In this document: positions 2,025-51,585 of the stretch, piece after piece
Numbering within the stretch: position 1 is the stretch's first letter
Layout of the letters: each line of letters begins with the position of its first letter
The notes under the pieces: generated by a model
What the model was told of the DNA's origin: nothing
The model's database searches: none
The model's input: only the letters and a program-made list of their open reading frames with translations
NCBI GenBank assembly: GCA_040390725.1
Contig: JAZJXT010000005.1
Location: 13,301 to 77,300 of the forward strand
Origin: Patescibacteria group bacterium
GTDB taxonomy: Bacteria > Patescibacteriota > Minisyncoccia > Phycocordibacterales > UBA9973
Direction: 5' to 3'
Length of the DNA stretch: 64,000 nt
Made by a program: the position numbers and the translations under genes

Positions 2025-4316
2025 ATGCGATTGAATTCCATAGAAATAAACGGCTTCAAATCTTTTTCCAAAAAAACACCTTTGGAATTTTTGAGTCCTG
2101 TTGTGGCTGTGGTGGGGCCCAATGGCTCCGGCAAGTCTAACGTCGTCGAGGCATTTCGCTTTGTGCTCGGTGAACAATCAATGAAATCAATGCGAGGTAA
2201 AGCCGGCTCGGATTTGGTTTTTAAAGGTTCAAAAAATCTACCGAAAGGCACTCGCGCATCTGTGACGATTTATTTTAATAATGCGGATAAGATTTTTAAA
2301 CTTTCAAATGAAAGCGGCGAGAATGTAAATTTAAATTTTGATACTATTTCTATTTCTCGTGAAGTGCATATTGATGGATTAAATAAATATATTTTAAACG
2401 GCACCGAGGTACGCTTGAAAGATATACAAAATCTTTTGGCCTCGGTGAATATCGGTTCTTCCGGGCACCATATTATTTCTCAAGGCGAGGCGGACAGGAT
2501 TTTAAATGCATCACCACGGGACAGGCGGGAAATGGTAGAGGATGCACTAGGATTGAAAATATACCAATATAAAATAAAAGAAGCAGATAGAAAATTAGAG
2601 AGAACTTTAAATAATATTAAAGAAGTTTCTTTGTTGCGTAGAGAAAACGCTCCGCACTTGAATTTCTTAAAAAAACAAGTGGAGAAATTTGAAAAAGCTA
2701 AAGAAATGAAAGTGGAACTGCTCGACCTTTATCGAGATTATTTAAAAAAAGAGAGCATATATTTAGACCAAGAAAAAAATAATTTAAATAATGAGAAAAA
2801 TAAAATCTCAAATGAACTGGCAAATATCGGTGGGCAACTTTCCTCCATGGAAAGTAATGCTCCGTTTGAGGAAAATAAAAAATCAATAGAAATTAGAAAC
2901 CTTGAACAAAAAATCAGGGAAATAAGAAATGTAAAAAGTGAACTTGAAAGAAAGCTCGGACGCATTGAAGGAATGATAGAAATGGAAGAACGTCGAACAC
3001 AGAAAGCTCCGGTTGAAATACAAAATCAAAATCATACAGAAAAAGTAAATATTCCTCAAGAAGAGCTAGAGAATTTTTTACGCGAAGCGCACGAGTATTT
3101 GGAAGAGGCTATGTATATGGATGTTTTGGAAAATATTCAACCTATTTTGCGTAAAATAAAGGATATTTTGGATAGGTTTGCGAATTCTACTTCTTCGTCA
3201 AAAGTTCCTTCTGATTCTCACCAACCAGCAGGCAGAGCAGTAACTGATAATTCTGAAATGCTAAATAATGTGCAGGCTCTCAAAGATTCTCAGCAAGCAA
3301 TTCTTGCAGAAATGCAAAAGATAGAACAAGAAGAAAAAAATATTTCTGAGAATGTAGAAATTTTGAAAAGTGAAATTAGTAGAGAAGTAGAGGCAGGCAG
3401 AGAGCAAGAGCGTGCAAGGTTTGATTTGAAAATGAAACATAGTGAGCTTTCTTCGGTGTTGAATGTTTTGAAAGTCAGAGAAGAAAATTTATCACGTGAA
3501 GTGGAAAGTTTCGAAAATGAAATTAGGGAAGGTTCGGCTCTTGTCGGCGGGGAAATTTTTTCATATAAAAATGCGGAAGTTTCCGGTGATATTGAAAAGC
3601 ATACTCAAGAAGAAGAGAAAAGAAAAATAGAAAGAATTAAAATAAAATTGGAAGACGCAGGCCTCGGCGGGGGATCAGAAATAATAAAAGAATATGAAGA
3701 GGTTTCCACCCGTGATCAATTCTTGGCGAAAGAATTGGAAGATTTAGGCAAGAGTATTGATTCATTACGCATATTGATGGCGGACTTGAAAGAGAAGATT
3801 GATTTTGAATTTAAAGAAGGTGTGAAAAAAATAAATAAAGAATTCCAAGAATTTTTCGCTCTTATGTTCGGCGGGGGGTCTGGTTTTCTTTCTGTCGTTG
3901 CCGAGCAGAAAAAGGCAAAAGCAGGGGAGGAAGAAGAAACAGAAGATGGAATTATTTTTGAACATGGCATAGAAATAAATGTTTCTCTTCCGCACAAAAA
4001 AGTAAAAGAACTGCATGCGCTTTCCGGAGGCGAGCGCTCGCTCACATCCATCGCGCTTCTTTTCGCAATGTCGCAAGTCAACCCTCCGCCATTTCTTATC
4101 TTAGATGAAACTGACGCAGCCCTCGACGAAGCCAATTCGCGTAAATATGGCGATATGGTGGAAAGACTTTCCAAGCATTCACAGCTCATAGTCGTCACTC
4201 ACAACCGTGAGACGATGTCCCGCGCAGGAGTCCTCTACGGCGTTACCATAGGTGCCGACGGCGCATCCAAACTCCTCTCCGTCAAATTCGACGAAGCTCA
4301 AGCTATTGCGAAATAA
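2025..4316 (+). CDS. smc: SMC-family chromosome segregation ATPase (short 763-aa form)
   Basis: N-terminal SMC head MRLNSIEINGFKSF...VVGPNGSGKSNVVEAFRFVLGEQS; long coiled coil; C-terminal signature LSGGERSLTSIALLFA and Walker B FLILDETDAALD. About 400 aa shorter than canonical SMC. Confidence 0.8.
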   Translation: MRLNSIEINGFKSFSKKTPLEFLSPVVAVVGPNGSGKSNVVEAFRFVLGEQSMKSMRGKAGSDLVFKGSKNLPKGTRASVTIYFNNADKIFKLSNESGENVNLNFDTISISREVHIDGLNKYILNGTEVRLKDIQNLLASVNIGSSGHHIISQGEADRILNASPRDRREMVEDALGLKIYQYKIKEADRKLERTLNNIKEVSLLRRENAPHLNFLKKQVEKFEKAKEMKVELLDLYRDYLKKESIYLDQEKNNLNNEKNKISNELANIGGQLSSMESNAPFEENKKSIEIRNLEQKIREIRNVKSELERKLGRIEGMIEMEERRTQKAPVEIQNQNHTEKVNIPQEELENFLREAHEYLEEAMYMDVLENIQPILRKIKDILDRFANSTSSSKVPSDSHQPAGRAVTDNSEMLNNVQALKDSQQAILAEMQKIEQEEKNISENVEILKSEISREVEAGREQERARFDLKMKHSELSSVLNVLKVREENLSREVESFENEIREGSALVGGEIFSYKNAEVSGDIEKHTQEEEKRKIERIKIKLEDAGLGGGSEIIKEYEEVSTRDQFLAKELEDLGKSIDSLRILMADLKEKIDFEFKEGVKKINKEFQEFFALMFGGGSGFLSVVAEQKKAKAGEEEETEDGIIFEHGIEINVSLPHKKVKELHALSGGERSLTSIALLFAMSQVNPPPFLILDETDAALDEANSRKYGDMVERLSKHSQLIVVTHNRETMSRAGVLYGVTIGADGASKLLSVKFDEAQAIAK

Positions 4317-4328
4317 AGAAGAGAAAAG

Positions 4329-4712
4329 AACCTCACCCCAGATTCAAAGTATCTCACCCTAAGATTCAAGGAACCTCACCCCATCCGCCAGCTGGCGGAC
4401 TCTCCTTATTAAGGAGAGGGGGAAAATACAAAATTCAAATCGGCATGACTATTTTTTATAACAAATCTAAAAATTTAACTAAAAGAATTTTATTGAGACA
4501 ATCTCAAACTTCTCAAGAAGTAATGCTTTGGGGAAAATTAAGAAATATAAAGAATATGACAAGCAAAGGTCTGATTATTTATCGGTATTTAATATCAAAG
4601 TAATTCGTTTTTGGAATAATGAAATAAATACCAATATAGAAGGTGTCATATTAAAAATTATTGATGAGTTGAATTCCCCCTCTCCTTAATAAGGAGAGGG
4701 TAGGGTGAGGTT
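4329..4712. mobile_element. MITE-like non-autonomous element: imperfect terminal inverted repeats flanking a decayed DUF559 endonuclease gene
   Basis: Left end: 2.5 tandem copies of cctcaccc(c)agattcaa(a)g (4331-4382), palindrome ccgccagctggcgg (4386-4399), palindrome tctccttattaaggagaggggg (4401-4422). Right end 4676-4712 ccccctctccttaataaggagagggtagggtgaggttc is the reverse complement of the left end minus the ccgccagctggcgg piece. Confidence 0.55.
4445..4700 (+). pseudogene. DUF559 (Vsr-like endonuclease domain) gene remnant, internally deleted and frameshifted
   Basis: Frame 1 from ATG 4445: MTIFYNKSKNLTKRILLRQSQTSQEVMLWGKLRNIKNMTSKGLIIYRYLISK* (DUF559 N-terminal pattern LRxxxTxxExxLWxxLRN). 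A second frame from ~4603 gives VIRFWNNEINTNIEGVILKIIDELNSPSP* (DUF559 C-terminal RFWNNEV..LEGVL). The ~60-aa core between them is missing. Confidence 0.55.
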
Positions 4713-4772
4713 CTGCTGGATTTATAGTAGTCGCAAAATAAGCCTTATTTATAAGGACTTTCTATATTTTAG

Positions 4773-4801
4773 TTGACATTTGGGTTAGCATATGATATAC
4801 T
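4773..4801 (+). promoter_or_regulatory. canonical sigma70 promoter TTGACA-17-TATACT
   Basis: ttgaca (4773-4778), 17-nt spacer, tatact (4796-4801). Drives a ~150-nt leader with a nested hairpin (4861-4904: tcccgaaatta...taatttcggga, inner cacaac/gttgtg) before ORF 4955. Confidence 0.5.
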
Positions 4802-4954
4802 TGCTGTAGACTATTTCTTTGAAAAAACATTGATTTTTGATTACTTAGGTTATTTGGATTTCCCGAAATTAGATCACAACATTTGTTGTGTTTTAATTTC
4901 GGGAAAAGCTGAACACCCGAGTAAGAAGTAGGCGAAAAAATAAACTTAGAAATA

Positions 4955-5440
4955 ATGAAAGAATTATTGTTAGAAAAAGCACGTGAATCTGGTATCTTAA
5001 TTGATGTGATTGAGAGAAATATTAATATCAATTATGATCAGGATATGTATGAACTTGGGGGATTAATCCGCTCTAATCAAGAGCAAAACATTTTTCGGAA
5101 CATAGATAAAAAATATGATCCCCCTAAGGGACAAAAAAATGAGGACGTAGTTCTCATCAAATTTCCAAAGATGTTTTCCTGGGACCAGGGTGTATCCTGG
5201 GGCCGACAAGCTGGTCTTAGTCATTCAACACCTTGGGTTGTGTTTAGCTTGAAGGATACCCCGTATCCAATTTTGGAAACAAGGGGCTATTCAGTTTGCA
5301 AGTGGGACTATGGACTAAATGGTCAGGTAATTGACGACTGGAGGGAAGAATATGTTTGCGGGATTAACGAAAAAGGTGAAGCAAAAGTCTTTTCTCAGCC
5401 TCGTAGAGAGAATCCTTTCTGGCTCGCATTTCTTCGTTAG
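4955..5440 (+). CDS. hypothetical protein (161 aa) in GC-enriched islet
   Basis: Intact ORF with no recognisable family; local GC visibly higher than neighbouring genes. Confidence 0.5.
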   Translation: MKELLLEKARESGILIDVIERNININYDQDMYELGGLIRSNQEQNIFRNIDKKYDPPKGQKNEDVVLIKFPKMFSWDQGVSWGRQAGLSHSTPWVVFSLKDTPYPILETRGYSVCKWDYGLNGQVIDDWREEYVCGINEKGEAKVFSQPRRENPFWLAFLR

Positions 5441-5514
5441 TGGAAAAAGGTGAAACTGCTTACCTTTAAGTAGCAGAATTTTTTTTGTTTAACTTCTAAT
5501 TTAAAAATCAAATC

Positions 5515-5808
5515 ATGAATTTACATCAGATTACCGTAGAGCAGGCGGCGACTATCGCCACCCAGTTCTTGAAGCAAGAAATTGCAGAAATTCTTTGTTT
5601 GGGTCGCGATGATGGAGAACCTAAATATATTTGTATCAGGATGAAAAATCTTGAGGAGGACGTAAGTCCATGCCTCTATATCTACCCCAGTGGTAGTGTT
5701 CACCTTATTCACATTAAGGATGGAGGAGCAAATAGGCCATTCCAGCCTGTTAATGCTCTGCCTATAACGGATTATCTCCGTAGTGAGGGATTTGAGTTTA
5801 AATACTAA
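5515..5808 (+). CDS. hypothetical protein (97 aa)
   Basis: Intact ORF following a hairpin/T-run after the 161-aa gene; no recognisable family. Confidence 0.45.
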   Translation: MNLHQITVEQAATIATQFLKQEIAEILCLGRDDGEPKYICIRMKNLEEDVSPCLYIYPSGSVHLIHIKDGGANRPFQPVNALPITDYLRSEGFEFKY

Positions 5809-5852
5809 TTTTCCTCAGTAAAGCCACTTACTAAAATAGTGGCACGTAATAA

Positions 5853-5888
5853 AAAACGCGTACGATTCAATCTACGCGTTTTCTTTTT
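5853..5888 (+). terminator. rho-independent terminator
   Basis: aacgcgtacgattcaatctacgcgtt stem followed by ttcttttt. A smaller hairpin gccactta...tagtggc precedes it at 5823-5843. Confidence 0.6.
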
Positions 5889-5904
5889 GCTAATTTTTAA
5901 ATTT

Positions 5905-5936
5905 CTACGATAGTCGACATATGTTTGCTATCGTAG
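5905..5936 (+). repeat. 32-bp nested palindrome, copy 1 of 3: CTACGATAGTCGACATATGTTTGCTATCGTAG
   Basis: Perfect 9-bp outer arms ctacgatag/ctatcgtag with inner palindromes gtcgac and acatatgt. Near-identical copies at 50855-50886 (opposite orientation) and 51497-51526. Confidence 0.8.
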
Positions 5937-5948
5937 ATTATGGATAGT

Positions 5949-7841
5949 TTACTTTGCAAACTTAATTTTCTCTTCTTTTCCTAAAATAGGTTTTTGGGGT
6001 TGGAAGACAGAATTTAATTTTATTATATTTTTCTTTACGGACATTGTGCCAGCTTTGTAAAGTTTTATTTCTAGCAACATTCCTTGCATCGTGTTTTCCG
6101 AGAATTTTTGGTCAAAGATAAAGTTGCCTAATGAGTAGGCTATATAACTATTTTTATAAACTTCAAAATCTTCCACGACATGCGGATGCGCGCCGATGAC
6201 GAGTTTGGCACCGTCGTCTACGGCTTTATGCGCTAGGTATTCTTGGCGAGTATTATGTTTTGTTTGATATTCCTCACCGAAATGAAATGACACCACTAAA
6301 CTATCCACTTGTTTCGAAGCATTTTGAATTATTTTATCAAAATTCGGATTAGTGGTGAGTAGTAGTCCAGATTCTGTATCAGTAGGAGTCAACCATTCTG
6401 GGCCTTTATCAGAGAATGCCAGATAGCCTATTTTCATACCATTTTTTTCAATTATTTTAGGAATTTCTGCGTTATTTTCATTTGCTCCGCCTCCCGAATA
6501 AAGAATTTCGTTTTCTGTTAAGTGCGAAAGTGTGTCTTCGAAAGCTTCACGACCCCAGTCGCCGATATGATTGTTTGAAATAGAAAGTACATCTATGCCA
6601 GCACCCTTGAGTGCGGGTATAGTTTCCGGATCCATTCTGAAAGAATATAAATTGTGTTTATCTTCTCCTTGGTCTGACGCTGGGCCTTCTAAATTTGCAA
6701 AGACGATATCATTTTTATTAAGTTCACCCATGTTTTGGAAAAGAGCGGAATAGTCGCCGTTGAAATTCTTGCGAACGGAACTTTTTACTCCGCGGTCGAG
6801 CATGATGTCGCCCAAGAATGCTAAATTCACATAGTCAGGTTCTGCAAATTCAGGCATGCCTTCTTTGGTTTTTACCCAATTACTTTTTGCGTCTATTTCA
6901 CCACCGTAATAAATATTTTTCTTCACAAATTTTAAAATACTTTCCACGTCTTTTTTGCGGTCTGGTGTACGGAGGAGGACAATAGCTACATTTCTTTTCC
7001 CGGACTCAGAAAGAGGCAGGGAAAAATTTGAAATCACCGTTTGCTTAGCTTCGTCGGTGTATCCGCTCTTACCGCCCAGGTATCCATCATCACTTAGGAA
7101 TTGATTGGTGCTGTACCAGAAATGTTTTTTATTGCTGTAACTTTTATTTTGAGTTATTTTTAAAACATTAGGCGCGTTATTTTTTAAATATCCGGCGAGA
7201 GAAAATAGGTCGCGTGCGGTGGATTGATTGTTCGGCGAGAGTCCGCTCGGGTCTTCAAAGGACGTCGAAGGCATTGATAATCTTTGCGCTTCTTGATTCA
7301 TTTTTTGCAGGAAAGTTTCTCTATTAAAGTGTTCGGCTATTATTTCAGCGGCATCATTTGAAGATTCCAGTAGAAGAGGGTAGAGGATATCGCTTATCTT
7401 TATTTTTTCATTTAAATGAAAAGCGCCGTTTTGTCCGTATGTGGCAAGGGCTTTTTTGGAAACAACAGCCACATCATTGTCATCAGGCAGTTCTGTGGCG
7501 GTGAGAGCCGTCATAAGTTTTGAAACAGATGCGATAGGGTATTTTTGTTCTTCTTTTTTCTTTAAAATTATTTCACCGGTGTCCAAGTCACCCACTATGT
7601 ATGCATCAGCAGAAATCTTCGGCGCTATTTTTGGATCTTTTAGAAAATAAAAACTTGTCTGCTCAGGAGTTTTTGTTTCAGATATTGGTGCCGGTTGTGT
7701 TTTCGGGACTTCATTTTGGGTATTTCCTTCTTTTGATATTTTATAATATCCGATGGCTTGCGTTATGAAAAAAGCGGAGGCTAGTCCTACGGTTAAGGAT
7801 ATAATTACAAATAGAAATTTTTTTGCTGCTCGTTTAACCAT
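5949..7841 (-). CDS. membrane-anchored fusion of a serine-type D-Ala-D-Ala carboxypeptidase domain and a CapA/PgsA-like metallophosphatase domain
   Basis: N-terminal TM helix; PBP5-type motifs SVSKLMT (SxxK), ESSND (SxN), KSGYT (KTG). C-terminal half has CapA motifs (LAFLGDIMLDR, FANLEGP, SISNNHIGDWG, VIGAHPHVV). Confidence 0.75.
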   Translation of the reverse strand: MVKRAAKKFLFVIISLTVGLASAFFITQAIGYYKISKEGNTQNEVPKTQPAPISETKTPEQTSFYFLKDPKIAPKISADAYIVGDLDTGEIILKKKEEQKYPIASVSKLMTALTATELPDDNDVAVVSKKALATYGQNGAFHLNEKIKISDILYPLLLESSNDAAEIIAEHFNRETFLQKMNQEAQRLSMPSTSFEDPSGLSPNNQSTARDLFSLAGYLKNNAPNVLKITQNKSYSNKKHFWYSTNQFLSDDGYLGGKSGYTDEAKQTVISNFSLPLSESGKRNVAIVLLRTPDRKKDVESILKFVKKNIYYGGEIDAKSNWVKTKEGMPEFAEPDYVNLAFLGDIMLDRGVKSSVRKNFNGDYSALFQNMGELNKNDIVFANLEGPASDQGEDKHNLYSFRMDPETIPALKGAGIDVLSISNNHIGDWGREAFEDTLSHLTENEILYSGGGANENNAEIPKIIEKNGMKIGYLAFSDKGPEWLTPTDTESGLLLTTNPNFDKIIQNASKQVDSLVVSFHFGEEYQTKHNTRQEYLAHKAVDDGAKLVIGAHPHVVEDFEVYKNSYIAYSLGNFIFDQKFSENTMQGMLLEIKLYKAGTMSVKKNIIKLNSVFQPQKPILGKEEKIKFAK

Positions 7842-7852
7842 TTTTGAAATGA

Positions 7853-9811
7853 CTATATTAATACATAATCTATTGTTTTCTTTTCCAGGTCGGCGCTCTT
7901 TACTTTTATTTTGACCTTGCCTCCGAGTTTATATATTTTTTTCTTTTTTTCTCCGATGAGTTCCATTTTTTTCTCATTGAAAACATAAAAATCATCCGAG
8001 AGGTCTCGCACGCGGACGAGCCCTTCGCATTTTGTTTCCAATTCTTCCACATATACGCCCCATTCTGTTATGCCACTGATTACACCTTCGAAAGTTTTGC
8101 CGATGCGTGAAGACATATATTCCACCTGTTTGTATTTGATGGATGCGCGTTCGGCATCTGATGCGCGTTTTTCTTGGTCAGAAGATTTACGGGAAAGTTT
8201 TTCATATTCTTCAAATTTATTCGGACTTATTTTTTTACCGGACAAATAATCCGCGAGTAAGCGATGCACCATGACATCCGGATAACGCCTGATAGGGGAG
8301 GTGAAGTGTGTGTAGTATTCGAATGCGAGTCCATAGTGTCCGATATTTTTTGTAGAGTAAATCGCTTTTGCCATAGAGCGTATCATGGCTCTGCTCACGG
8401 CATCCTTTTCGGCTTTACCTGTGAGATTTTTTAAAATGTTATTCATTTCATATGAAGGAATAATTCCATTTTTCAATGATACTTTTTGCCCTAAACTTCG
8501 CAGGAAAAAAGCCAAGTCCTCCATTTTTTCTTTCGATGGCTCATCATGTATTCTATACACAAATACGCCTTCTTTTTTTGTAGCTTTTGCTAGTTTTTCC
8601 GCGACTTTTCTGTTTGCTAAAAGCATAAATTCTTCGATCAATTTATTTGAATCTCCGCGTTCTTTTTTGATAACTTTTATCGGTACGCCTTTTTCATCGA
8701 GGACGAATTTTACTTCTTCTTGTTCGAGAGACATTGCGCCCTTGGCGAATCTTTCTTTTGTTAAAAGTTTCGCTAGGTTATTTAAAATTAAAAGTTCTTT
8801 ATGCAGAGGCGCCGTGGATTTTTTTATTGATTCTTCTGCGTCTTCATAGCTGAATCTTTTTTTAGAATGTATCACAGTGCGTCCAAACCACTCATTTTTT
8901 ACTTGAGCGTTTTTATCTAGTGTGAATACAGCGCTCATAGTGAGGCGGTCTTTGTTTGGCACTAAGGAACATAAATCATTTGAAAGAATTTCCGGAAGCA
9001 TCGGTATCGTGCGGTCTACGAGGTAAACAGAAGTTCCACGTTCACGTGCTTCTTCATCGAGCTCACTGCCTATTTTTACATAATGCGAGACATCGGCTAT
9101 GTGTACGCCGACTTCAACATCTCCACCAGCTAATTCTAAAAAAGAAATAGCATCATCGAAATCTTTTGCATCGCTCGGGTCAATAGTGAAAGTTAAAATT
9201 TTTCGAAAATCACGTCTGCCGACAAAATCTTTTTCTGAAATTCCTTGTTGTTTTATTTTTTCCGCTTCAGTATTTACTTTATTTGGTAGTTCCGCTGCGA
9301 AACCTTTTTCCAAAGCTATCGCATGCATTTCCACATTATTATCGCCAGGACGTCCTAAAATTTTTACGACTTTTCCTTCGGGTGCTTTGCGTGGATCTTG
9401 CCAAGAAGTTATTTCAACAAAAACTTTTTGTCCTATTTTTGCTCCATTTAGATTTTTATCATGAATTAAAATATCCGTGTACATTTTTGTGTCGTCCGGT
9501 TTCAAGAAAAACATCGAATTTTCTTTTTCTAAAACTCCCGCGAAGCCAATCTTTGCGCGAGAGATTATTTTTACAACTTCGGCTGATTGTCTGCCTTTAC
9601 CCTTTGGATGCAAAATTATCTGCACAGTGTCGCCATGCAGGGCAGTCTTTAGATGCTTATAGTCTATTTCCGGATCTTCACCATTTTTGGTCTTTGTGCC
9701 GTCAATTTTGACATACCCTGTGCCTTTTGAGGTAATAGATATAATGCCTTCCAGTGTATTATGCTTATGTTTATTTTCCTTTTTCATATTCTTAATATAG
9801 CATATTTTCAT
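7853..9811 (-). CDS. rnr: ribonuclease R
   Basis: Cold-shock/OB N-terminus, RNB catalytic domain (TIDPSDAKDFDDAISF), C-terminal S1 domain (GKTFEGVISGITEWGVYVEL). On the minus strand, TGcTATATT extended -10 lies 6 nt before ATG 9811. Confidence 0.9.
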   Translation of the reverse strand: MKICYIKNMKKENKHKHNTLEGIISITSKGTGYVKIDGTKTKNGEDPEIDYKHLKTALHGDTVQIILHPKGKGRQSAEVVKIISRAKIGFAGVLEKENSMFFLKPDDTKMYTDILIHDKNLNGAKIGQKVFVEITSWQDPRKAPEGKVVKILGRPGDNNVEMHAIALEKGFAAELPNKVNTEAEKIKQQGISEKDFVGRRDFRKILTFTIDPSDAKDFDDAISFLELAGGDVEVGVHIADVSHYVKIGSELDEEARERGTSVYLVDRTIPMLPEILSNDLCSLVPNKDRLTMSAVFTLDKNAQVKNEWFGRTVIHSKKRFSYEDAEESIKKSTAPLHKELLILNNLAKLLTKERFAKGAMSLEQEEVKFVLDEKGVPIKVIKKERGDSNKLIEEFMLLANRKVAEKLAKATKKEGVFVYRIHDEPSKEKMEDLAFFLRSLGQKVSLKNGIIPSYEMNNILKNLTGKAEKDAVSRAMIRSMAKAIYSTKNIGHYGLAFEYYTHFTSPIRRYPDVMVHRLLADYLSGKKISPNKFEEYEKLSRKSSDQEKRASDAERASIKYKQVEYMSSRIGKTFEGVISGITEWGVYVEELETKCEGLVRVRDLSDDFYVFNEKKMELIGEKKKKIYKLGGKVKIKVKSADLEKKTIDYVLI

Positions 9812-9852: not shown

Positions 9853-10161
9853 ATGTTAAAAATAAGGTTACAGAGAATAGGCAGAAAGAACGATCCGGCT
9901 TTTCGGGCGGTTTTGACTGATTCCAAGAACAGTACAAAGAGCGGAAGATTTTTGGAGATAGTCGGTACCTACAATCCAAAGGCAGGGGAGACTAATTTTA
10001 AAGCTGAAAGAATACAATACTGGATGTCAAAAGGCGCAAAGCTTTCTGACACAATGCATAATTTCCTAGTTCACCAAAAAGTTATCGAAGGCAAGAAAGT
10101 AAATGTTTTGCCAAAAAGAAAACCTACTCTAAAAAGAAAAGAATTAAAGGCTAAGAAATAG
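9853..10161 (+). CDS. rpsP: 30S ribosomal protein S16
   Basis: MLKIRLQRIGRKNDPAFRAVLTDSKNSTKSGRFLEIVGTYNP matches the S16 N-terminus. Confidence 0.9.
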   Translation: MLKIRLQRIGRKNDPAFRAVLTDSKNSTKSGRFLEIVGTYNPKAGETNFKAERIQYWMSKGAKLSDTMHNFLVHQKVIEGKKVNVLPKRKPTLKRKELKAKK

Positions 10162-10650: not shown

Positions 10651-10696
10651 TTGCTTTTTTTACTAGAACCTATAAACTAGAACCTATAACCTAATT

Positions 10697-11356
10697 ATGC
10701 GTTTTCATATAATCACAATTTTCCCCGAGGCATTTGATTCTTATTTAAAAGAGTCTATTGTCGGGCGGGCGATAGAGAATAAAAATATTTCTGTGAAGTT
10801 TTATAACCCGCGAGATTTTATAAAAGCTCCAAAGAATAATTATAAACCTGTTGATGATAAGCCTTACGGCGGAGGTCCGGGTATGGTGATGAGGGCAGAG
10901 CCTATCTTGCTTGCTGTCACCAAAGCACTTTCAAAAATAAAAAATAAAAAAAGTAAAATTTTAACTGTTAATTTTATTCCATCTGCAGAAAAATTTACTA
11001 CAAGTGTGGCAAAAAATATTTCAAAAAAATATACGGACGTTATTTTAATTTGTGGTAGGTATGAAGGTATAGATGCGCGAGTGGATAAAATTTTGAAGAC
11101 TAAGAAGTTTTCAATCGGGGATTATGTTTTGACCGGCGGGGAATTGCCAGCAATGGTTTTAGTAGATTGCATTTCCCGACAAATTCCCGGAGTTTTAGGT
11201 AAATATGAATCACTTGAAGAAGAAAGAATTTCGAGCAGTGAAGTTTATACGAGACCGGAAATTTTAAAATACAAAAACAAAAATTACAAAGTGCCGAAAG
11301 TTTTACTTTCTGGTAATCACAAACTCATAGATGAGTGGAAGAAAAATAATTCCTAA
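10697..11356 (+). CDS. trmD: tRNA (guanine37-N1)-methyltransferase
   Basis: MRFHIITIFPEAF, YGGGPGMVM, and the SPOUT knot region GRYEGIDARV and GDYVLTGGELPAMVLVD. Confidence 0.9.
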   Translation: MRFHIITIFPEAFDSYLKESIVGRAIENKNISVKFYNPRDFIKAPKNNYKPVDDKPYGGGPGMVMRAEPILLAVTKALSKIKNKKSKILTVNFIPSAEKFTTSVAKNISKKYTDVILICGRYEGIDARVDKILKTKKFSIGDYVLTGGELPAMVLVDCISRQIPGVLGKYESLEEERISSSEVYTRPEILKYKNKNYKVPKVLLSGNHKLIDEWKKNNS

Positions 11357-12138
11357 ACTTTTATTCCGTATTTTTTTATAACTTCTAAAATTTCATCGTG
11401 CACGAGTCCGTTTGAGGCGAGCTGTCCGGCGACTTTTTGGTCATAACGAGTATTTTGTCCAAAAAGGTCGGTGGCTTTTCCGCCGGCTTCTTCGACTATT
11501 ATTTGAATAGCTGCCGTATCGTGCGGGTCTTTGCCTCCGAATAGAATTGCCGAGAATTCTCCCGCGCCTACCAATGCGCCCATGTAATCTATCGAAAGTC
11601 CGGTCACTAAACGCACACCGCGTTCACGCAATGCTTCACCGACGGGGAAAAGATTGATAACCCCTGCAGACCATTTGCCTATGCCGATGACTGTTTTTTG
11701 AACGCTAGGGGAAGCAGAAACTTTTATTGTTTCGCCGTTTAGTGTCGCGCCTTTGCCTTTTTCTGCGAAATAAATTCTATTTAAAAATGGGTCACAAATA
11801 ACGCCGAGTATCGGAATGCCATCTTGCACTAATGCTAAAGCAAAAGCCGATGTAGGTATGCCGTGTGCGAAATTATGCGTGCCGTCCACAGGGTCGCAAA
11901 TCCAAGCGTATTCACTTTTTTGTAAGATATCTTCCGCCTCTTCGGAAAGGATGCTGTGGGTAGGGAAATGCTCGGTGATTTTTTTTACCACGATTTCGTT
12001 GATAGCTGTATCAGTCTCTGTTACCGGCGAATGGTCTTCTTTCCATTCCTTTTTCATACCCATCATAAAATTCTTGCGCATAATTTCACCCGCTTCTTTT
12101 GCCAATTCCAAAGCCACTTTTTTATATTCTGAATCCAT
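11353..12138 (-). CDS. suhB: inositol monophosphatase family protein (SuhB-like)
   Basis: IMPase motifs ETDTAINE and WICDPVDGTHNFAHGIP. Confidence 0.85.
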   Translation of the reverse strand: MDSEYKKVALELAKEAGEIMRKNFMMGMKKEWKEDHSPVTETDTAINEIVVKKITEHFPTHSILSEEAEDILQKSEYAWICDPVDGTHNFAHGIPTSAFALALVQDGIPILGVICDPFLNRIYFAEKGKGATLNGETIKVSASPSVQKTVIGIGKWSAGVINLFPVGEALRERGVRLVTGLSIDYMGALVGAGEFSAILFGGKDPHDTAAIQIIVEEAGGKATDLFGQNTRYDQKVAGQLASNGLVHDEILEVIKKYGIKV

Positions 12139-26290: not shown

Positions 26291-26321
26291 CTTTTAGCCC
26301 TATTTTTGCTATAATGTGGGG

Positions 26322-32075: not shown

Positions 32076-33347
32076 ATGCAAAGTCAAGCGTTAAAAAATT
32101 ATAAGTTGCCGGACAAACCGGGAGTTTATTTTTTTATGGGTTCAAAGCCACGAACAAAAACCTCACCCCCGACCCCTCTCCATTTTAAAGAAATGGAGAG
32201 GGGAGGAATGCCGAAGGCAGGAGGGGTGAGGGAAGAAATTCTCTATATCGGCAAAGCGACAAGTTTGAAAGACAGGGTAAAGAGTTACTTTGGTAAAGAT
32301 TTATTTAATACTCGTGGGCCGTTGATTGTGGATATGGTAACGAAAACCACAAGTTTAAAATGGCAGGAAACTGACTCAGTTTTGGAAGCGCTTATTTTGG
32401 AAGCGAATTTAATTAAAAAACATCAGCCATATTACAATACAAAAGAAAAAGATGATAAAAGTTTTAATTATGTTTGCATAACACGTGATAAAAAAATTAT
32501 GTTTGTGCGCGGAAAAGTACTAGATATAAAAAAATATAATTCTGTTTTCGGACCTTTTCCATCTGGTAGTCAACTTAAAGATGCTATGAAAATTGTGCGT
32601 CGAATTTTCCCATATATTGAAGAGAGAAGGGGTGCAAAAGGCAAAGAAGAATTTTATAAACAAATAAAGCTTTTCCCATTAGATTCAAAAGAAAATACAA
32701 ATAACATTAAAAACATAAAACTATTTTTTGAGGGCAAGAAACAAAAAGTAGTAAAGAACTTAGAAAAAGAAATGAAGATGCTTGCGCATGAGCATGAATT
32801 TGAACAGGCAAATGAAATAAAGAAACAGCTATTTGCATTAAAGCACATCAATGATGTTGCATTAATAAAAGGAGATTCTTTTGGAGGCTCAACCTCCAAA
32901 AATTTCAGAATTGAAGCTTATGATATAGCTCATATGTCAGGACAAAATATGGTGGGTGTGATGACGGTTTTGGAAGATGGCGAAGTAAATAAAAATGAAT
33001 ATAGAAAATTCAAGATAAAAAATTATGATAGTGCGAATGACACCGGAGCATTGTTGGAAGTTTTAGAAAGACGTTTTAATCATTCCGAGTGGCAATATCC
33101 GAAATTAATTGTGATAGACGGAGGCAAGGCACAGCTGAATGTAATTAAAAAATTCCAAGCTCGCGTCGGGTTCGCTATTCCGTCAGTGGCGGTAGTGAAA
33201 GATGAAAGGCATAAAGCTAAAGGCATTTTGGGTGACAAAGAAACTATAAAAAAGTTCGAAAAAAGCATTTTACTAGCAAATGCCGAAGCGCATAGGTTTG
33301 CTATCAAATATCACATAAAAACACGCAAAAATAGCTTTTTGGGGTAG
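32076..33347 (+). CDS. uvrC: excinuclease ABC subunit C, short form lacking the C-terminal (HhH)2 domain, with an in-frame palindromic-element insertion in the GIY-YIG domain
   Basis: GIY-YIG (PGVYFF...ILYIGKATSLKDRVKSYF), UVR motif (EFEQANEIKKQLFALKHI), endonuclease domain (RIEAYDIAHMSGQNMVGVM). Ends at 423 aa. Confidence 0.85.
   Translation: MQSQALKNYKLPDKPGVYFFMGSKPRTKTSPPTPLHFKEMERGGMPKAGGVREEILYIGKATSLKDRVKSYFGKDLFNTRGPLIVDMVTKTTSLKWQETDSVLEALILEANLIKKHQPYYNTKEKDDKSFNYVCITRDKKIMFVRGKVLDIKKYNSVFGPFPSGSQLKDAMKIVRRIFPYIEERRGAKGKEEFYKQIKLFPLDSKENTNNIKNIKLFFEGKKQKVVKNLEKEMKMLAHEHEFEQANEIKKQLFALKHINDVALIKGDSFGGSTSKNFRIEAYDIAHMSGQNMVGVMTVLEDGEVNKNEYRKFKIKNYDSANDTGALLEVLERRFNHSEWQYPKLIVIDGGKAQLNVIKKFQARVGFAIPSVAVVKDERHKAKGILGDKETIKKFEKSILLANAEAHRFAIKYHIKTRKNSFLG
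32161..32232 (+). repeat. 72-bp imperfect palindromic element (CCTCACCC...GGGTGAGG termini) inserted in frame inside uvrC
   Basis: cctcacccccgacccctctccattt | taaagaa | atggagaggggaggaatgccgaaggcaggaggggtgaggg. It encodes the extra peptide ~KPRTKTSPPTPLHFKEMERGGMPKAGGVRE between conserved GIY-YIG blocks and shares termini and the CTCTCC core with the element at 4329-4712. Confidence 0.7.
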
Positions 33348-43401: not shown

Positions 43402-46400
43402 TTAAATCTCTTTCACCGCATCTATTGCAATACTTTTTTCGCCATTGCGGACGGAGACTTTGCCGGAGAGGGCGATGCATTTTTCGGCGACGAGGATGTC
43501 TATGGAACTGCTGAAAGTGGAAGGGAATACTACAGCTTCAATGGTGCCGGTTAGGTCAGAAATTTTTAAGAATGCCATGCGTTCATTTTTTTTCGTTATG
43601 ACTTGGCGGACTGTTTCTATAATGCCTCCTATTTTTACAGGTGTGCCATTTTTTCCTTCCTCAATTATTTTTTTAATATTCATTTCTTTTTTCTCTAGTT
43701 TTTCGCGCAGTCTATCGAGTGGATGTCCGGAAATATAAAGTCCTAATAGTTCTTTTTCCCAAAGCAGTTTTTCTGTCTGCGTCGCCGGAGTTCCATCCCG
43801 TAATTTGAAAGATGGCGCAGAAGTAGTCGGCAGTGCTCCGAAAAGTGAAATCTGATTTGCATTTTGTTTGGAGCTTTCTTTATTGTATTCGAGCATGTTT
43901 TCCAAATTAAAAAGAAGAGTTCCGCGGTCGCTGAATTCATCCATCGAGCCGGACTTTATCAAAGCTTCCATTGATTTTTTATTTAAATTTTTATGTTTTA
44001 TTCTATCCAAGAAATCGCTGATATTTTTAAATTCACCATTAGCTTTGCGTTCAGAAATTATTGCATCTGAGATATCCGTGCCGAGGTTTTTAATTGTATA
44101 AAATCCAAATCTGATATCTCTAGACACCATAGAGGCCGAACCTCCAAGGGGAGGTTCGGCCTCGGAAGGAACTCGAATAACAGTAAATCCGCCATAACTT
44201 TCATTTATATTCGGCGGAAGCACGGGGATTTTCATATTCTTACATTCATTGATTATTTCAGAAATTTTTTCCACATCGCCGGATTCTGCCGTCAAAATAG
44301 CGGTCATGTATTCCACCGGATAATTCGCTTTCATATACGCCGTCTGATATGCGACTTTTCCATAACTCGCCGCGTGTGCTTTGTTGAATCCATAAGCCTG
44401 AAAAGGTTCGAAAAGTTTCCACAATTCTTCAGCGAATTTTTTTGTCTGTCCATTTGCTACTATTCCATCAGTGAATTTTTTATGCTGTGCGGCCATTTCC
44501 GCAGGAATTTTTTTACCCACAGCCTTGCGGAATTTATCGGCTTCCTCCCAGTTATACCCGGCCATTTCGAGCGCACAGAAGAGCAGGTCGTCTTGGTAAA
44601 CGATGAGTCCATATGATTCCGTCAAGAATTTTTTCATTCGCGGGTCCAAATATTTTACCAGCTTTGGGTTATGTTTTCTTTTTATATATTCGGGAATTGA
44701 TTCCATCGGACCGGGGCGGTAAAGAGCTACCATTGCATTAATATCATGAATAGATGTGGGTTTTAGTTCTTTTAAATATCTCGTCATTCCTGAGCCGTTT
44801 AGTTGGAAAAGTCCTTCTGTTTGTCCGCTCGCCAAAAGTGCAAAAGTTTTTTTGTCATCAAGGGGAATTTTTTCTATATCAATATTTATATTGTAGAATT
44901 TTTTTACCAAACTTATTGCATCTCCTAAAATTGCCAAGTTCCTTATTCCCAAAAAGTCGAATTTCAAAAGCCCGGCTTCTTCGATACTGTACATGTCGTA
45001 TTGAGTGATTACTTTTCCTCCTTTCGGGTCGAGCTGAACAGGAGTATATTCATATATTGGTTTTGGTGCGATGACGACGCCCGCTGCGTGCACCGAGATG
45101 TGCCGTACGCATCCTTCTATTTTTTTTGCTAAATCAATTATCTCTTTGGTGTCTTTTTCTTTTTCATAAGCTTCTTTGAGTTCTGGTACTATTTTCATAG
45201 CATGGTCTATGGTCATCGGCATTCCTTGTGAGCCGAGTGGAATCATCTTTGAAATTCTATCACCAATACTATATTCATGGCCGAGAGCTCGCGCTACGTC
45301 GCGCACAGAACCTTTTGCCATCATCGTACCAAATGTTCCTATTTGCGCGACCTTGTCTTCGCCATATTTTTTCTTTGCGTACTCGATCATTTCATCGCGT
45401 CTGTTGTCGGCATAGTCCATATCGATGTCCGGCGGGGAAGGACGGAATGGATTTAAGAATCTTTCAAAGGGTAATTTATATTCTATCGGGTTCACATTTG
45501 TAATGCCTATCAAATATGTCACCATCGATCCAGCAACGGAGCCTCGGATAGTCGTCAAAATTCCATTTTCTTTTGCATGTCGTAACAAATCTCCCACCAC
45601 CAAAAAGTACGGCGAATATCCTTTGTCGCAAATAATTTTCAATTCATATTCTACGCGTTCTTTTATTTCCGGAGTTTCTTTTAAGTCAAGCCGAGCAAAT
45701 CCGGCATAAGTTAATTCGCGTAGTTTTTCATTATAAGTTTTCCCCTCCTCGATTTTAAAATCAGGAAATACCCAAGCCCCTAGTGGGATTTCAACATCGC
45801 ACATATCGGCAACTTTTTTTGTATTTGCGACAGCTTCGGGAATATCTTTGAAAATTTCCAATGCTTGTTCTTCGTTGATAAAAGAAAAATCATCTCCGCC
45901 GAAAGTAAATCTGTTTTCATCTTTTAGGTCGGAGTTTGTTTGAATTGCGAGCAATGTCTCGTGCGCTTTATGGTCTTCTCCGCAAGGGTAATGCGAGTCA
46001 AAAGTCGCTACCATAGGGATATCAAATTTCCTGCTCATTTTTATCAATGCTTCACGTACTTCTTTGTCACCTTCTACTGAGGGGTGCTTCATCACTTCCA
46101 AAAAATAATTTTCTTTACCGAAAATATCTTGATGCTCTTTTATTATCATTTCCGCTTTTTCTTCGTTCTTTGCGTAAAGTGCTTGTGAGAGTTCTCCACC
46201 CAGGCAACCGGAGAGCGCGATGACTCCTTCTGAGTACTTTCGCAAAATTTCTTTGTCCATTCTCGGCTTGTAGTAATATCCTTCGAGGTTTGAAAGTGTC
46301 ACCAAGTGAATTAGATTTTTATAACCCTGCAAATTTTTTGCGAGCAATGTCAGGTGGTAGCGTTTATTGTCTATGCCGGGTTCTTTGTCGAGGCGTGAAC

Positions 46401-46620
46401 GTTCGGCGATATATGCCTCGACACCGATGATGGCTTTGATGCCTTCTTTTTTTGCGAGTTTATAAAATTCAATAGCGCCATACATATTACCGTGGTCGGT
46501 GATAGCCATCGCCGGCATTTTGAATTTCTTTGCCAGAGCCACCAAATCCTCGGTCTTTGAAAGCCCATCCAAGAGGGAGTAATGACTATGCGTATGCAAA
46601 TGCACAAAACCTTGTTTCAT
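43402..46620 (-). CDS. dnaE: DNA polymerase III subunit alpha
   Basis: PHP domain FVHLHTHSHYSLLDG; 1072 aa with polymerase core and OB domain. Confidence 0.95.
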   Translation of the reverse strand: MKQGFVHLHTHSHYSLLDGLSKTEDLVALAKKFKMPAMAITDHGNMYGAIEFYKLAKKEGIKAIIGVEAYIAERSRLDKEPGIDNKRYHLTLLAKNLQGYKNLIHLVTLSNLEGYYYKPRMDKEILRKYSEGVIALSGCLGGELSQALYAKNEEKAEMIIKEHQDIFGKENYFLEVMKHPSVEGDKEVREALIKMSRKFDIPMVATFDSHYPCGEDHKAHETLLAIQTNSDLKDENRFTFGGDDFSFINEEQALEIFKDIPEAVANTKKVADMCDVEIPLGAWVFPDFKIEEGKTYNEKLRELTYAGFARLDLKETPEIKERVEYELKIICDKGYSPYFLVVGDLLRHAKENGILTTIRGSVAGSMVTYLIGITNVNPIEYKLPFERFLNPFRPSPPDIDMDYADNRRDEMIEYAKKKYGEDKVAQIGTFGTMMAKGSVRDVARALGHEYSIGDRISKMIPLGSQGMPMTIDHAMKIVPELKEAYEKEKDTKEIIDLAKKIEGCVRHISVHAAGVVIAPKPIYEYTPVQLDPKGGKVITQYDMYSIEEAGLLKFDFLGIRNLAILGDAISLVKKFYNINIDIEKIPLDDKKTFALLASGQTEGLFQLNGSGMTRYLKELKPTSIHDINAMVALYRPGPMESIPEYIKRKHNPKLVKYLDPRMKKFLTESYGLIVYQDDLLFCALEMAGYNWEEADKFRKAVGKKIPAEMAAQHKKFTDGIVANGQTKKFAEELWKLFEPFQAYGFNKAHAASYGKVAYQTAYMKANYPVEYMTAILTAESGDVEKISEIINECKNMKIPVLPPNINESYGGFTVIRVPSEAEPPLGGSASMVSRDIRFGFYTIKNLGTDISDAIISERKANGEFKNISDFLDRIKHKNLNKKSMEALIKSGSMDEFSDRGTLLFNLENMLEYNKESSKQNANQISLFGALPTTSAPSFKLRDGTPATQTEKLLWEKELLGLYISGHPLDRLREKLEKKEMNIKKIIEEGKNGTPVKIGGIIETVRQVITKKNERMAFLKISDLTGTIEAVVFPSTFSSSIDILVAEKCIALSGKVSVRNGEKSIAIDAVKEI

Positions 46621-50828: not shown

Positions 50829-50854
50829 GATTTAATAAAAAAATAAAAACTTGT

Positions 50855-50886
50855 CTACGACAATAAACATATGTCGACTATCGTAG
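50855..50886 (-). repeat. 32-bp nested palindrome, copy 2 (inverted orientation), overlapping the promoter of the PaaX-like gene
   Basis: ctacgacaataaacatatgtcgactatcgtag; reverse complement ctacgatagtcgacatatgtttattgtcgtag. TAGAAT -10 (50907-50912) ends 6 nt before ATG 50919. Confidence 0.8.
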
Positions 50887-50918
50887 ACATTGTAAATTTT
50901 TTAGGATAGAATAAAAAG

Positions 50919-51488
50919 ATGAAAAGAAAAATTGTTTATAAAATTTTGGAATCATTGGAAAATTCAGCGCTTGGTTTGCTTGATTTGGCTATTACAATTT
51001 CTGAATCTGGGTATGGCGCAAGTCTAGGTAAGCTTGATCGAGCAGTAGAAGAAAAGTTTAGTAAGCGAACCGCCTTACGTTTAGAAAAGGAGAAAATGGT
51101 GAGAATAAAAAAATACTTATCAAAGTTAAAGAGTGACGGATTAATAAATGAAAATTCGTCGGGGAAAATATTTTTAACCACAAAAGGAAATCAAAAACTC
51201 GGTGCGTATAAAAAATCCGATTTGTCTATTAGGGATGGATACATAAAAGAAGTTGGTGATAAGGTAATAATCATAAGTTATGATATTCCTGTTGCTTTTA
51301 ATAGAGAAAGAAATATTTTGAGAGATATTTTACGAATGCTTGGCTTGGAGCCTGTTCACAAAAGCGTTTGGGTTGGCAAAGTGAAATTGCCAAAAAAGTT
51401 TATAGAGGATATGGGGCATCTTGGTATTTTAGATTACCTTGAAATTTTGGAAGTTACAAAGAGCGGTAGTCTAAAAACTGTGGAATAA
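50919..51488 (+). CDS. PaaX-family-like transcriptional regulator (N-terminal winged helix plus C-terminal PaaX_C/Cas2-like domain)
   Basis: wHTH-like N-terminus (KKYLSKLKSDGLINENSSGKIFLTTKGNQKL). C-terminus VIIISYDIPVAFNRERNILRDILRMLGLEPVHKSVWVGK matches PaaX W-G-W-LVSFDIPE..R..RD.LR..L...GFG.L..SVW. Confidence 0.6.
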   Translation: MKRKIVYKILESLENSALGLLDLAITISESGYGASLGKLDRAVEEKFSKRTALRLEKEKMVRIKKYLSKLKSDGLINENSSGKIFLTTKGNQKLGAYKKSDLSIRDGYIKEVGDKVIIISYDIPVAFNRERNILRDILRMLGLEPVHKSVWVGKVKLPKKFIEDMGHLGILDYLEILEVTKSGSLKTVE

Positions 51489-51496
51489 TAAAGTTT

Positions 51497-51526
51497 ACGA
51501 TAGTCGACATATGTTTGTTATCGTAG
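51497..51526 (+). repeat. 32-bp nested palindrome, copy 3, upstream of the BNR-propeller gene
   Basis: (t)tacgatagtcgacatatgtttgttatcgtag, same orientation as copy 1. Confidence 0.8.
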
Positions 51527-51585
51527 AAAAGTGAGAAATACGATTTTAGCTATCTTTTTGTCCATTTTTGTGGTATGTTTGGTGT

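Follow-up and report, generated by a model that had tools for sequence, protein, structure and literature searches.

Diversity-generating retroelements (DGRs) are defined by a signature in which the mismatches between the variable region (VR) of a target gene and its template repeat (TR) are specific to adenines. To our knowledge, the C-type-lectin fold defines all of the variable proteins that have been solved. In bacteria of the candidate phyla radiation (CPR), a DGR usually has a single target, which lies next to it, and targets at a distance are a feature of another lineage (PMC5758913). The CPR targets typically carry no recognisable domains or transmembrane segments (PMC8144416; PMC5758913), and it was suggested that uncharacterised VR domains are new variants of the C-type lectin (PMC8144416). 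Here, we have analysed a stretch of 64,000 nucleotides from a Patescibacteria group bacterium (contig JAZJXT010000005.1, positions 13,301 to 77,300), referred to as the window; the contig, of 82,668 bp, extends 18.7 kb beyond it. We focus on a segment at 4713-5948 of the window that carries two small open reading frames, ORF1 and ORF2, and that an earlier note, made from the letters of the window, had described as GC-enriched and suggested to be a horizontally acquired cassette. We show that the segment is lineage-specific cargo in the hypervariable, convergent junction between the smc gene and the PBP5/CapA gene. On balance, we lean towards the reading that this hotspot cargo is one small transcription unit, of which ORF1 is a stand-alone and currently static homologue of a DGR target.

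That the segment is not part of the core genome came from a comparison of gene order. With the SMC protein as query, a scan that covered each GTDB species by one genome gave 80 loci of Nomurabacteria/Paceibacterota (numbered with L below) at 48-77% identity. The order nusB-rnc-smc, followed on the opposite strand by the PBP/CapA and RNase R genes and then by S16 on the first strand, is kept in all 80. What varies is the gap between smc and the PBP/CapA gene, which spans ~0 to 4.9 kb. Both flanking genes are present in 70 relatives, of which 24 have a gap of ≤100 bp, 9 one of 100-500 bp, 28 one of 500-1500 bp and 9 one of >1500 bp. In the closest relative (L004, 77% SMC identity), the two genes are only 13 bp apart. 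The gaps hold 95 small ORFs, mostly co-oriented, which fall into 72 clusters; the cargo includes PaaX/Cas2-like regulators (five genomes), NUDIX, a DUF559 endonuclease and DGR remnants. Neither ORF2, nor a close homologue of ORF1, nor DNA similar to 4713-5948 was found in the 80 related loci, and in none of these genomes do the same two genes stand in a conserved core context. Since the flanks are conserved and the cargo is absent from the relatives, the segment is non-core cargo of this lineage placed in a hotspot. Few marks of mobility accompany it: the window holds no tRNA, and no integrase, target-site duplication or direct repeats flank the segment. A signature of this type was seen in one neighbour only, a decayed DUF559 element, which has terminal inverted repeats.

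The proposal of a horizontally acquired cassette stands in so far as the segment is non-core cargo with an atypical promoter and leader, but its composition is ordinary. The GC content of the segment is 36.7%, versus 37.0% for the window. Compared with size-matched pieces of host genes, ORF1 (39.5% GC) lies at the 63rd percentile and ORF2 (41.8% GC) at the 79th, and in synonymous codon usage they rank at the 32nd and 9th percentile, respectively, among host genes. With both ORFs inside the host distribution, a GC island is ruled out, and composition gives no argument for acquisition. The GC of the segment exceeds only that of the immediately adjoining non-coding DNA, and it is because this DNA is very AT-rich that the segment gives the impression of raised GC.

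The two ORFs of the earlier note, of 161 and 97 aa, are both present. ORF1 (V4439_03380; 4955-5440, plus strand) encodes the longer of the two, a short cytosolic protein. Searching both proteins against Pfam, PADLOC, NCBIfam and PHROGs gave no match at E ≤ 1 except for one PHROG of unknown function (E = 0.087), and in a word-indexed homology search they matched only themselves. That the proteins have no recognisable family is hence true of the curated libraries, but it does not hold for the homology of ORF1. A phmmer search of ORF1 against 1.84 billion representatives retrieved a single protein, P0003 (224 aa, E = 4.7e-5), which is 35% identical to ORF1 by BLASTP over 54 aa (residues 48-101). 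A profile of ORF1 and P0003 found P0004 (209 aa, E = 1.3e-24), and when every ORF of the fetched loci was searched with a local HMM, two distant members were gained, one in L018 (227 aa) and one in L030 (168 aa). The L018 member lies in the same smc/PBP junction of a genome whose SMC is 67% identical to that of the window, and the L030 member lies between pheT and gyrB. When ORF1 was aligned with the other four members by hhalign, the match had 89% probability and E = 2.3e-6 over ORF1 residues 43-104. ORF1 is hence a short member of a five-member, very rare and uncurated family. Remote-homology searches led, in this way, from ORF1 to a family that includes a DGR variable protein, but from ORF2 to no homologue at all.

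The residues that match in the family form a conserved central block with the pattern G.K.E.[VI][VI]L..F......W[DK]....W..Q.GL....P..VF (ORF1 residues 43-104; 5081-5266, plus strand). Aligned globally, the proteins are collinear in the N-terminal helix and at the C-terminus, too. The shared N-terminal helix, ..A[RK]E.G[IV]......[IL].R, corresponds to residues 3-21 of ORF1 (4955-5020 of the window) and residues 19-37 of P0003; its likeness to a psq-type helix-turn-helix is a visual resemblance that no Pfam model supports. No further members were confirmed in JGI metagenome contigs or IMG/VR, and tblastn of ORF1, ORF2 and the L018 protein against phage GenBank gave no match. The match of the family profile in the PDB, to an IgG CH1 domain at E = 0.018, is spurious.

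The link between the ORF1 family and retroelements is provided by P0004. Its gene belongs to a DGR (L003:2605-5069), in which it adjoins a bAvd gene and an RVT_1 reverse transcriptase (RT) gene, and the last 116 nt of the P0004 gene recur 482 nt downstream at 84% identity. All of the mismatches between the two copies fall at adenines of the downstream copy, which has AAC/AAT codons where the gene has varied ones. Since adenine-specific mismatches between VR and TR are the defining signature of DGRs, this DGR is bona fide and P0004 is its variable protein. The VR of P0004 comprises residues 170-208, i.e. the C-terminal 39 codons, and aligns to the C-terminal 50 residues of ORF1. MAFFT alignments place the stretch of ORF1 that is collinear with this VR at residues ~112-161 (5288-5437, plus strand). 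Both proteins terminate in WLAFLR, and the codons for this motif are identical at 15 of 18 nt. Over the VR stretch, ORF1 and P0004 have only scaffold residues in common (G, C, E, W..F.R), and ORF1 has a 7-aa insertion and a 5-aa deletion relative to P0004. ORF1 could not be acted on by a template like that of P0004. By homology, ORF1 would be laid out as a conserved central block followed by a divergent C-terminal surface that matches the region diversified by the retroelement, and it would most likely be a ligand-binding protein of the DGR-target type.

Does ORF1 still undergo diversification? Using RT and Avd queries from L003, L031 and L059, tblastn gave nothing better than E = 0.03 in the 64-kb window. 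In the search for a template repeat of ORF1, blastn of 5230-5470 against the window returned only chance matches, and a window-wide repeat scan shows no pair. No TR, Avd or RT was found in the junction of the window, not even as fragments, nor in that of L018. With RT, Avd and TR all missing from the 64-kb window, the most fitting reading of ORF1 is that of a copy that stands alone and is static at present. It would be either what is left of an earlier DGR cassette or a family member without any DGR in its past. This reading is favoured by what other genomes hold at the same place: the smc/PBP junction is occupied by the distant family member in L018, and by a decayed DGR in L026 (L026:12557-14289), where the VR/TR mismatches have lost their adenine specificity and RT and Avd survive only as fragments. 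DGRs are also carried by the relatives L031 and L059, and the ORF1 family, in which no Pfam domain is recognised, agrees with what has been published on CPR targets.

Several points weigh against it. The scored homology is limited to ORF1 residues 43-104, and the match of the C-terminus consists of a global alignment and a six-residue motif. ORF1 does not have the ~70 N-proximal residues found in P0003 and P0004. Its AlphaFold2 single-sequence model has a pLDDT of 38, too low to be used, and the family profile has no relative in the PDB or Pfam. A DGR is demonstrable for only one of the five family members, P0004; around P0003 and the members of L018 and L030, 7-12 kb of sequence contain neither a template repeat nor an RT. 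Finally, the use of the promoter and the co-transcription of the two ORFs, which the proposed unit presupposes, are inferred.

ORF1 would not be static if RT, Avd and TR were encoded elsewhere in the genome and diversified its C-terminus from a distance. Sites for such a cassette exist in the lineage. Complete VR/TR/Avd/RT cassettes are found between thrS and rpmF in two relatives (L031:2345-4919 and L059:5442-7973); the VR/TR alignment of L031 has adenine-specific mismatches, and both DGRs look active. The window starts 111 nt upstream of rpmF, which puts this site just outside it, and the contig (82.7 kb) extends further. Moreover, the WLAFLR codons that ORF1 keeps are those of the 3' end of the VR/TR repeat of P0004. 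Downstream of the VR-equivalent end of ORF1, next to these codons (15 of 18 nt as in the 3' end of P0004 VR/TR), there is a stem at 5456-5480, which is weak (z = -1.6). An inverted repeat that follows an IMH-like, GC-rich end of the VR is found in only 34% of DGRs (PMC5758913). We nevertheless regard an active, non-adjacent DGR as improbable. The 64 kb at hand contain no template repeat, RT or Avd, and among the loci fetched from the 80 relatives only 2-3 include a DGR. The codons of ORF1 that are equivalent to the VR are not enriched in NNC/NNT, and ORF1 is identical in an independent Logan assembly of the same sample. The variable proteins of L031, L059 and L026 have no Pfam domain and are unrelated to the ORF1 family; a kinship of the family with those of L031 and L059 was considered and dropped, as hhalign shows them to be unrelated.

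The same findings at the junction also bear on how ORF1 came to be there. Rather than a recent horizontal acquisition, it could be an ancestral, fast-evolving family member of the smc/PBP junction, perhaps once part of a DGR, that has descended vertically, diverged until it was hard to recognise, and been lost or replaced in most lineages. The distant family member of L018 and the decayed DGR of L026, both at this junction, are in line with such a descent, and so are the host-like GC and codon usage of ORF1 and the absence of an integrase or target-site duplication on its flanks. What speaks against it is that ORF1 and the L018 protein are only ~22% identical, whereas core proteins are at 60-80%, and that the variable protein of L026 does not belong to the ORF1 family. 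In addition, the junction is essentially empty in 24 of 70 relatives, including the closest, and the promoter and leader, being atypical, point to a transcription unit of foreign origin. We take vertical descent to be a possible explanation, though an unlikely one.

ORF2 (V4439_03385; 5515-5808, plus strand) has no detectable homologue. It matched only itself in 5.8 billion clusters, and nothing in the 80 related loci or phage GenBank. The AlphaFold2 single-sequence model (pLDDT 70.5, pTM 0.60) consists of a helix, a five-stranded sheet and a short helix. Foldseek searches of this model against the PDB and BFVD gave nothing at E ≤ 0.001, and a sequence search of the PDB gave nothing either. 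None of the other four family members of ORF1 has an ORF2-like neighbour, and the neighbours that they do have are unrelated. ORF2 is, by its predicted fold, a small alpha/beta protein, and it is not a conserved partner of the ORF1 family.

These properties of ORF2 matter for the suggestion, made in the earlier note, that the two genes are a horizontally acquired toxin/immunity or anti-phage defence pair. Two small adjacent genes in a variable hotspot, beside a decayed endonuclease element, would suit such a pair. The modelled helix-plus-sheet fold of ORF2 is of a kind common among immunity proteins, and a TriTu immunity protein is among its non-significant Foldseek matches (E = 2.0). But neither protein matches a family of PADLOC, Pfam, NCBIfam or PHROGs, none of the four other family members (0/4) keeps the pairing, and no structural match is significant. 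Furthermore, the only informative relative of ORF1 is a DGR target and not a toxin. We found no positive evidence for the pair and consider it highly improbable.

The transcription unit that we propose would start at a sigma-70-type promoter, continue through a leader of ~150 nt with a very stable hairpin into ORF1 and then ORF2, and end at a strong bidirectional terminator. The promoter noted earlier, TTGACA-17-TATACT, is present at 4773-4801 (plus strand), where it has a TG extension, TTGACA-17-(TG)aTATACT, and matches at 11 of 12 positions. However, one such match is not above chance: the window has two 11/12 matches, versus 2.0 ± 1.5 in Markov-1 simulations, and a local promoter scan gave 6 sites versus 6.9 expected. 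The promoter is plausible from its position only, and transcription would start near 4808.

The hairpin that the earlier note saw in the leader is confirmed. The putative leader contains a near-perfect hairpin with a 21-bp stem at 4859-4906 (plus strand; ΔG = -27.9 kcal/mol, z = -8.1), and none of 200 shuffled sequences was as stable. Behind its inner stem, at 4875-4890, comes a T-run, the partner of which is an A-run on the upstream side, and looser outer pairing extends to 4841-4924. The leader as a whole (153 nt) folds with z = -5.3. No Rfam covariance model reached its gathering threshold in the window, and in 4300-6000 there were only chance hairpin matches (E = 0.3-0.9); the leader accordingly matches no riboswitch or attenuator family of Rfam. 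The hairpin is not repeated in the relatives, where the islet (4317-5948) has no DNA match outside the end of the DUF559 element. Other genes of the ORF1 family also have canonical-looking promoters and leaders, with sequences unlike the leader of the window: TTGACA-17-TATAAC precedes the P0003 gene (L002:9865-10000), TTGACT-17-TATACT with a TG extension precedes the family gene of L018 (L018:12317-12444), and a perfect 19-bp hairpin lies 60-110 nt 5' of P0004 (L003:2492-2545).

The style of promoter plus long leader is atypical in this window, as the earlier note had observed for the promoter. Most genes of the window have an extended -10 box, (TG)nTAtAAT, that ends 4-8 nt 5' of the start codon, and no Shine-Dalgarno sequence. 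Examples of such starts are those of the genes at 11353-12138 and 43402-46620 (both minus strand) and those at 26316, 28365, 39907, 56992 and 61199. As the -10 box lies so close to most of the start codons, leaderless transcription appears to be the norm in this genome.

At the 3' end, the claim that each ORF has its own terminator holds for ORF2 but hardly for ORF1. The sequence after ORF1 (5456-5487, plus strand) has a weak 5-bp stem and a T8 run, folds with z = -1.6 and was not called by the terminator scan, so a terminator there is doubtful. Since it is weak, ORF1 and ORF2 are more likely to form one transcript across the 74-nt gap, and are probably co-transcribed. By contrast, the intrinsic terminator after ORF2 is strong. 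It is found at 5851-5888 on both strands, with an A6 run, an ACGCGTA stem, its complement TACGCGT and a T-rich run, and the region 5809-5895 folds with ΔG = -23.9 kcal/mol and z = -4.8. Being bidirectional, it would end the transcripts of ORF2 and probably also, on the opposite strand, those of the convergent PBP/CapA gene.

One may ask whether the ORFs are translated at all. If ORF2, or less likely ORF1, were non-coding, the segment would be decaying, non-functional DNA. ORF2 has no homologue among 15 billion proteins and, in codon usage, ranks at the 9th percentile among host genes, and neither start codon is preceded by an evident Shine-Dalgarno sequence or a leaderless-type -10 box. Against this, ORF1 has conserved homologues with collinear motifs, and the pLDDT of 70.5 and pTM of 0.60 of the single-sequence model of ORF2 are unusual for random ORFs. 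Both ORFs are also intact, co-oriented and followed by a strong terminator, and both are annotated by NCBI. Decay to non-coding DNA is, in our view, very improbable.

The segment is bounded by two different repeat elements, as had been noted. The one on the left had been called MITE-like. Its terminal inverted repeats are real, a perfect 25-nt inverted repeat at 4400-4424 and 4674-4698, but what they bracket had been missed: it is a frameshifted, decayed gene for a DUF559 (Vsr-like) endonuclease. The element occupies 4400-4712 (plus strand) with the gene split over two frames (4445-4603 and 4528-4689), and the frame at 4528-4686 matches Pfam DUF559 at E = 6.5e-9. An intact DUF559 gene of 118 aa, with ~80% DNA identity, is found at the same position after smc in L041 (L041:12270-12691). 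Outside the inverted repeat there is a further motif, ACCTCACCC, at 4373-4381 and 4703-4711. This motif has five copies in the window versus 0.11 expected, among them one just before rnc (1306) and one at 32160. Repeat arms that match those of the DUF559 element are present in L004, L021, L033 and L077.

On the right, at 5904-5937, lies the first of three copies of a 34-nt palindrome, TCTACGATAG-N14-CTATCGTAGA, of which none would be expected in the window by chance. The hairpin of this copy has z-scores of -4.7 and -5.2 on the two strands. Between copies 2 and 3 (50854-50887 and 51494-51527), which are in inverted orientation, lies a gene for a PaaX_M/Cas2-like winged-helix protein (50919-51488), and homologues of this gene sit in the smc/PBP junction of L019, L021, L023, L033 and L081. 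None of the 80 relatives has the palindrome itself, which could act as an operator, belong to the REP-like elements or form the termini of a small mobile unit.

The assignment of the flanking genes was checked with Pfam. Upstream of the segment, they are rpmF (L32; 112-342), a NusB-NUDIX fusion (405-1304), rnc (RNase III; 1325-2020) and a short SMC (2025-4316). Downstream are the PBP5/CapA gene, a fusion of Peptidase_S11 and PGA_cap (5949-7841, minus strand), RNase R (7853-9811, minus strand) and S16 (9853-10161). A typical bacterial SMC has ~1,100-1,200 aa. The SMC of this lineage, roughly two-thirds of that, has ~710-775 aa in the window (2025-4316) and in all 80 relatives, and Pfam SMC_N detects both halves of the ATPase head. 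A direct repeat, CTAGAACCTA-N4-CTAGAACCTA, lies at 362-399 and 10663-10686, in each case directly 5' of a start codon (of the NusB-NUDIX gene and of an ORF at 10697, respectively), and may be a shared operator or promoter element.

The locus is in itself unsurprising, a modest curiosity that opens no long-standing question. What the analysis adds is that two hypothetical proteins have become a concrete lead, with ORF1 placed in a tiny uncurated family that also contains a protein proven to be a DGR target. In Patescibacteria, such targets have hardly been characterised at all, and stand-alone homologues could serve as static references for their scaffold and ligand. The finding that cargo recurs at the smc/PBP-CapA junction of Nomurabacteria-like genomes should also help to read other islets in reduced genomes. 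It is tempting to go further and suppose that the ORF1 family is an undescribed small cytosolic scaffold for hypervariation by retroelements in Patescibacteria. Its copies would move into, or persist at, the smc/PBP hotspot (as in the window and L018) uncoupled from a DGR, perhaps to be re-coupled in trans to one elsewhere, e.g. at the thrS/rpmF site, with ORF2 as a lineage-specific partner or ligand. We offer this as a speculation that is quite unlikely to hold.

How does the locus compare with known systems? Like other integration hotspots between core genes, the smc/PBP junction combines conserved flanks with small cargo that is highly variable across 70 genomes. Unlike them, it shows no integrase, tRNA, direct repeats or deviating composition, and its inserts are only 0.4-5 kb long. 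With type II toxin-antitoxin and polymorphic toxin-immunity pairs, the segment shares two small, adjacent and co-oriented genes in variable DNA, but family matches, a conserved pairing and significant structural matches, by which it would resemble them further, are missing here.

The DGR targets of the CPR (clade 2 of Roux et al. 2021, PMC8144416; 'UVR' or ungrouped VR of Wu et al. 2018, PMC5758913) differ from ORF1 in that the 64 kb around ORF1 contain neither a TR nor an RT or Avd, its VR-equivalent has indels and keeps scaffold residues only, and the ~70 N-proximal residues are missing. Nor could a C-type-lectin fold be recognised from the model of ORF1 (pLDDT 38) or from the search of the PDB with the family profile. 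On the other hand, ORF1 resembles these targets in being small, cytosolic and free of Pfam domains. It is homologous to P0004, and its variable part lies at the extreme C-terminus and ends in a conserved terminal motif. The locus can also be compared with decayed or orphaned DGR cassettes, such as that of L026. The variable protein of this cassette is unrelated to ORF1, and the junction of the window has no TR, Avd or RT fragments. Yet it occupies the same smc/PBP junction, with a variable gene, a TR that is no longer adenine-specific, and fragments of Avd and RT, and ORF1 could be the end state of a decay of this type.

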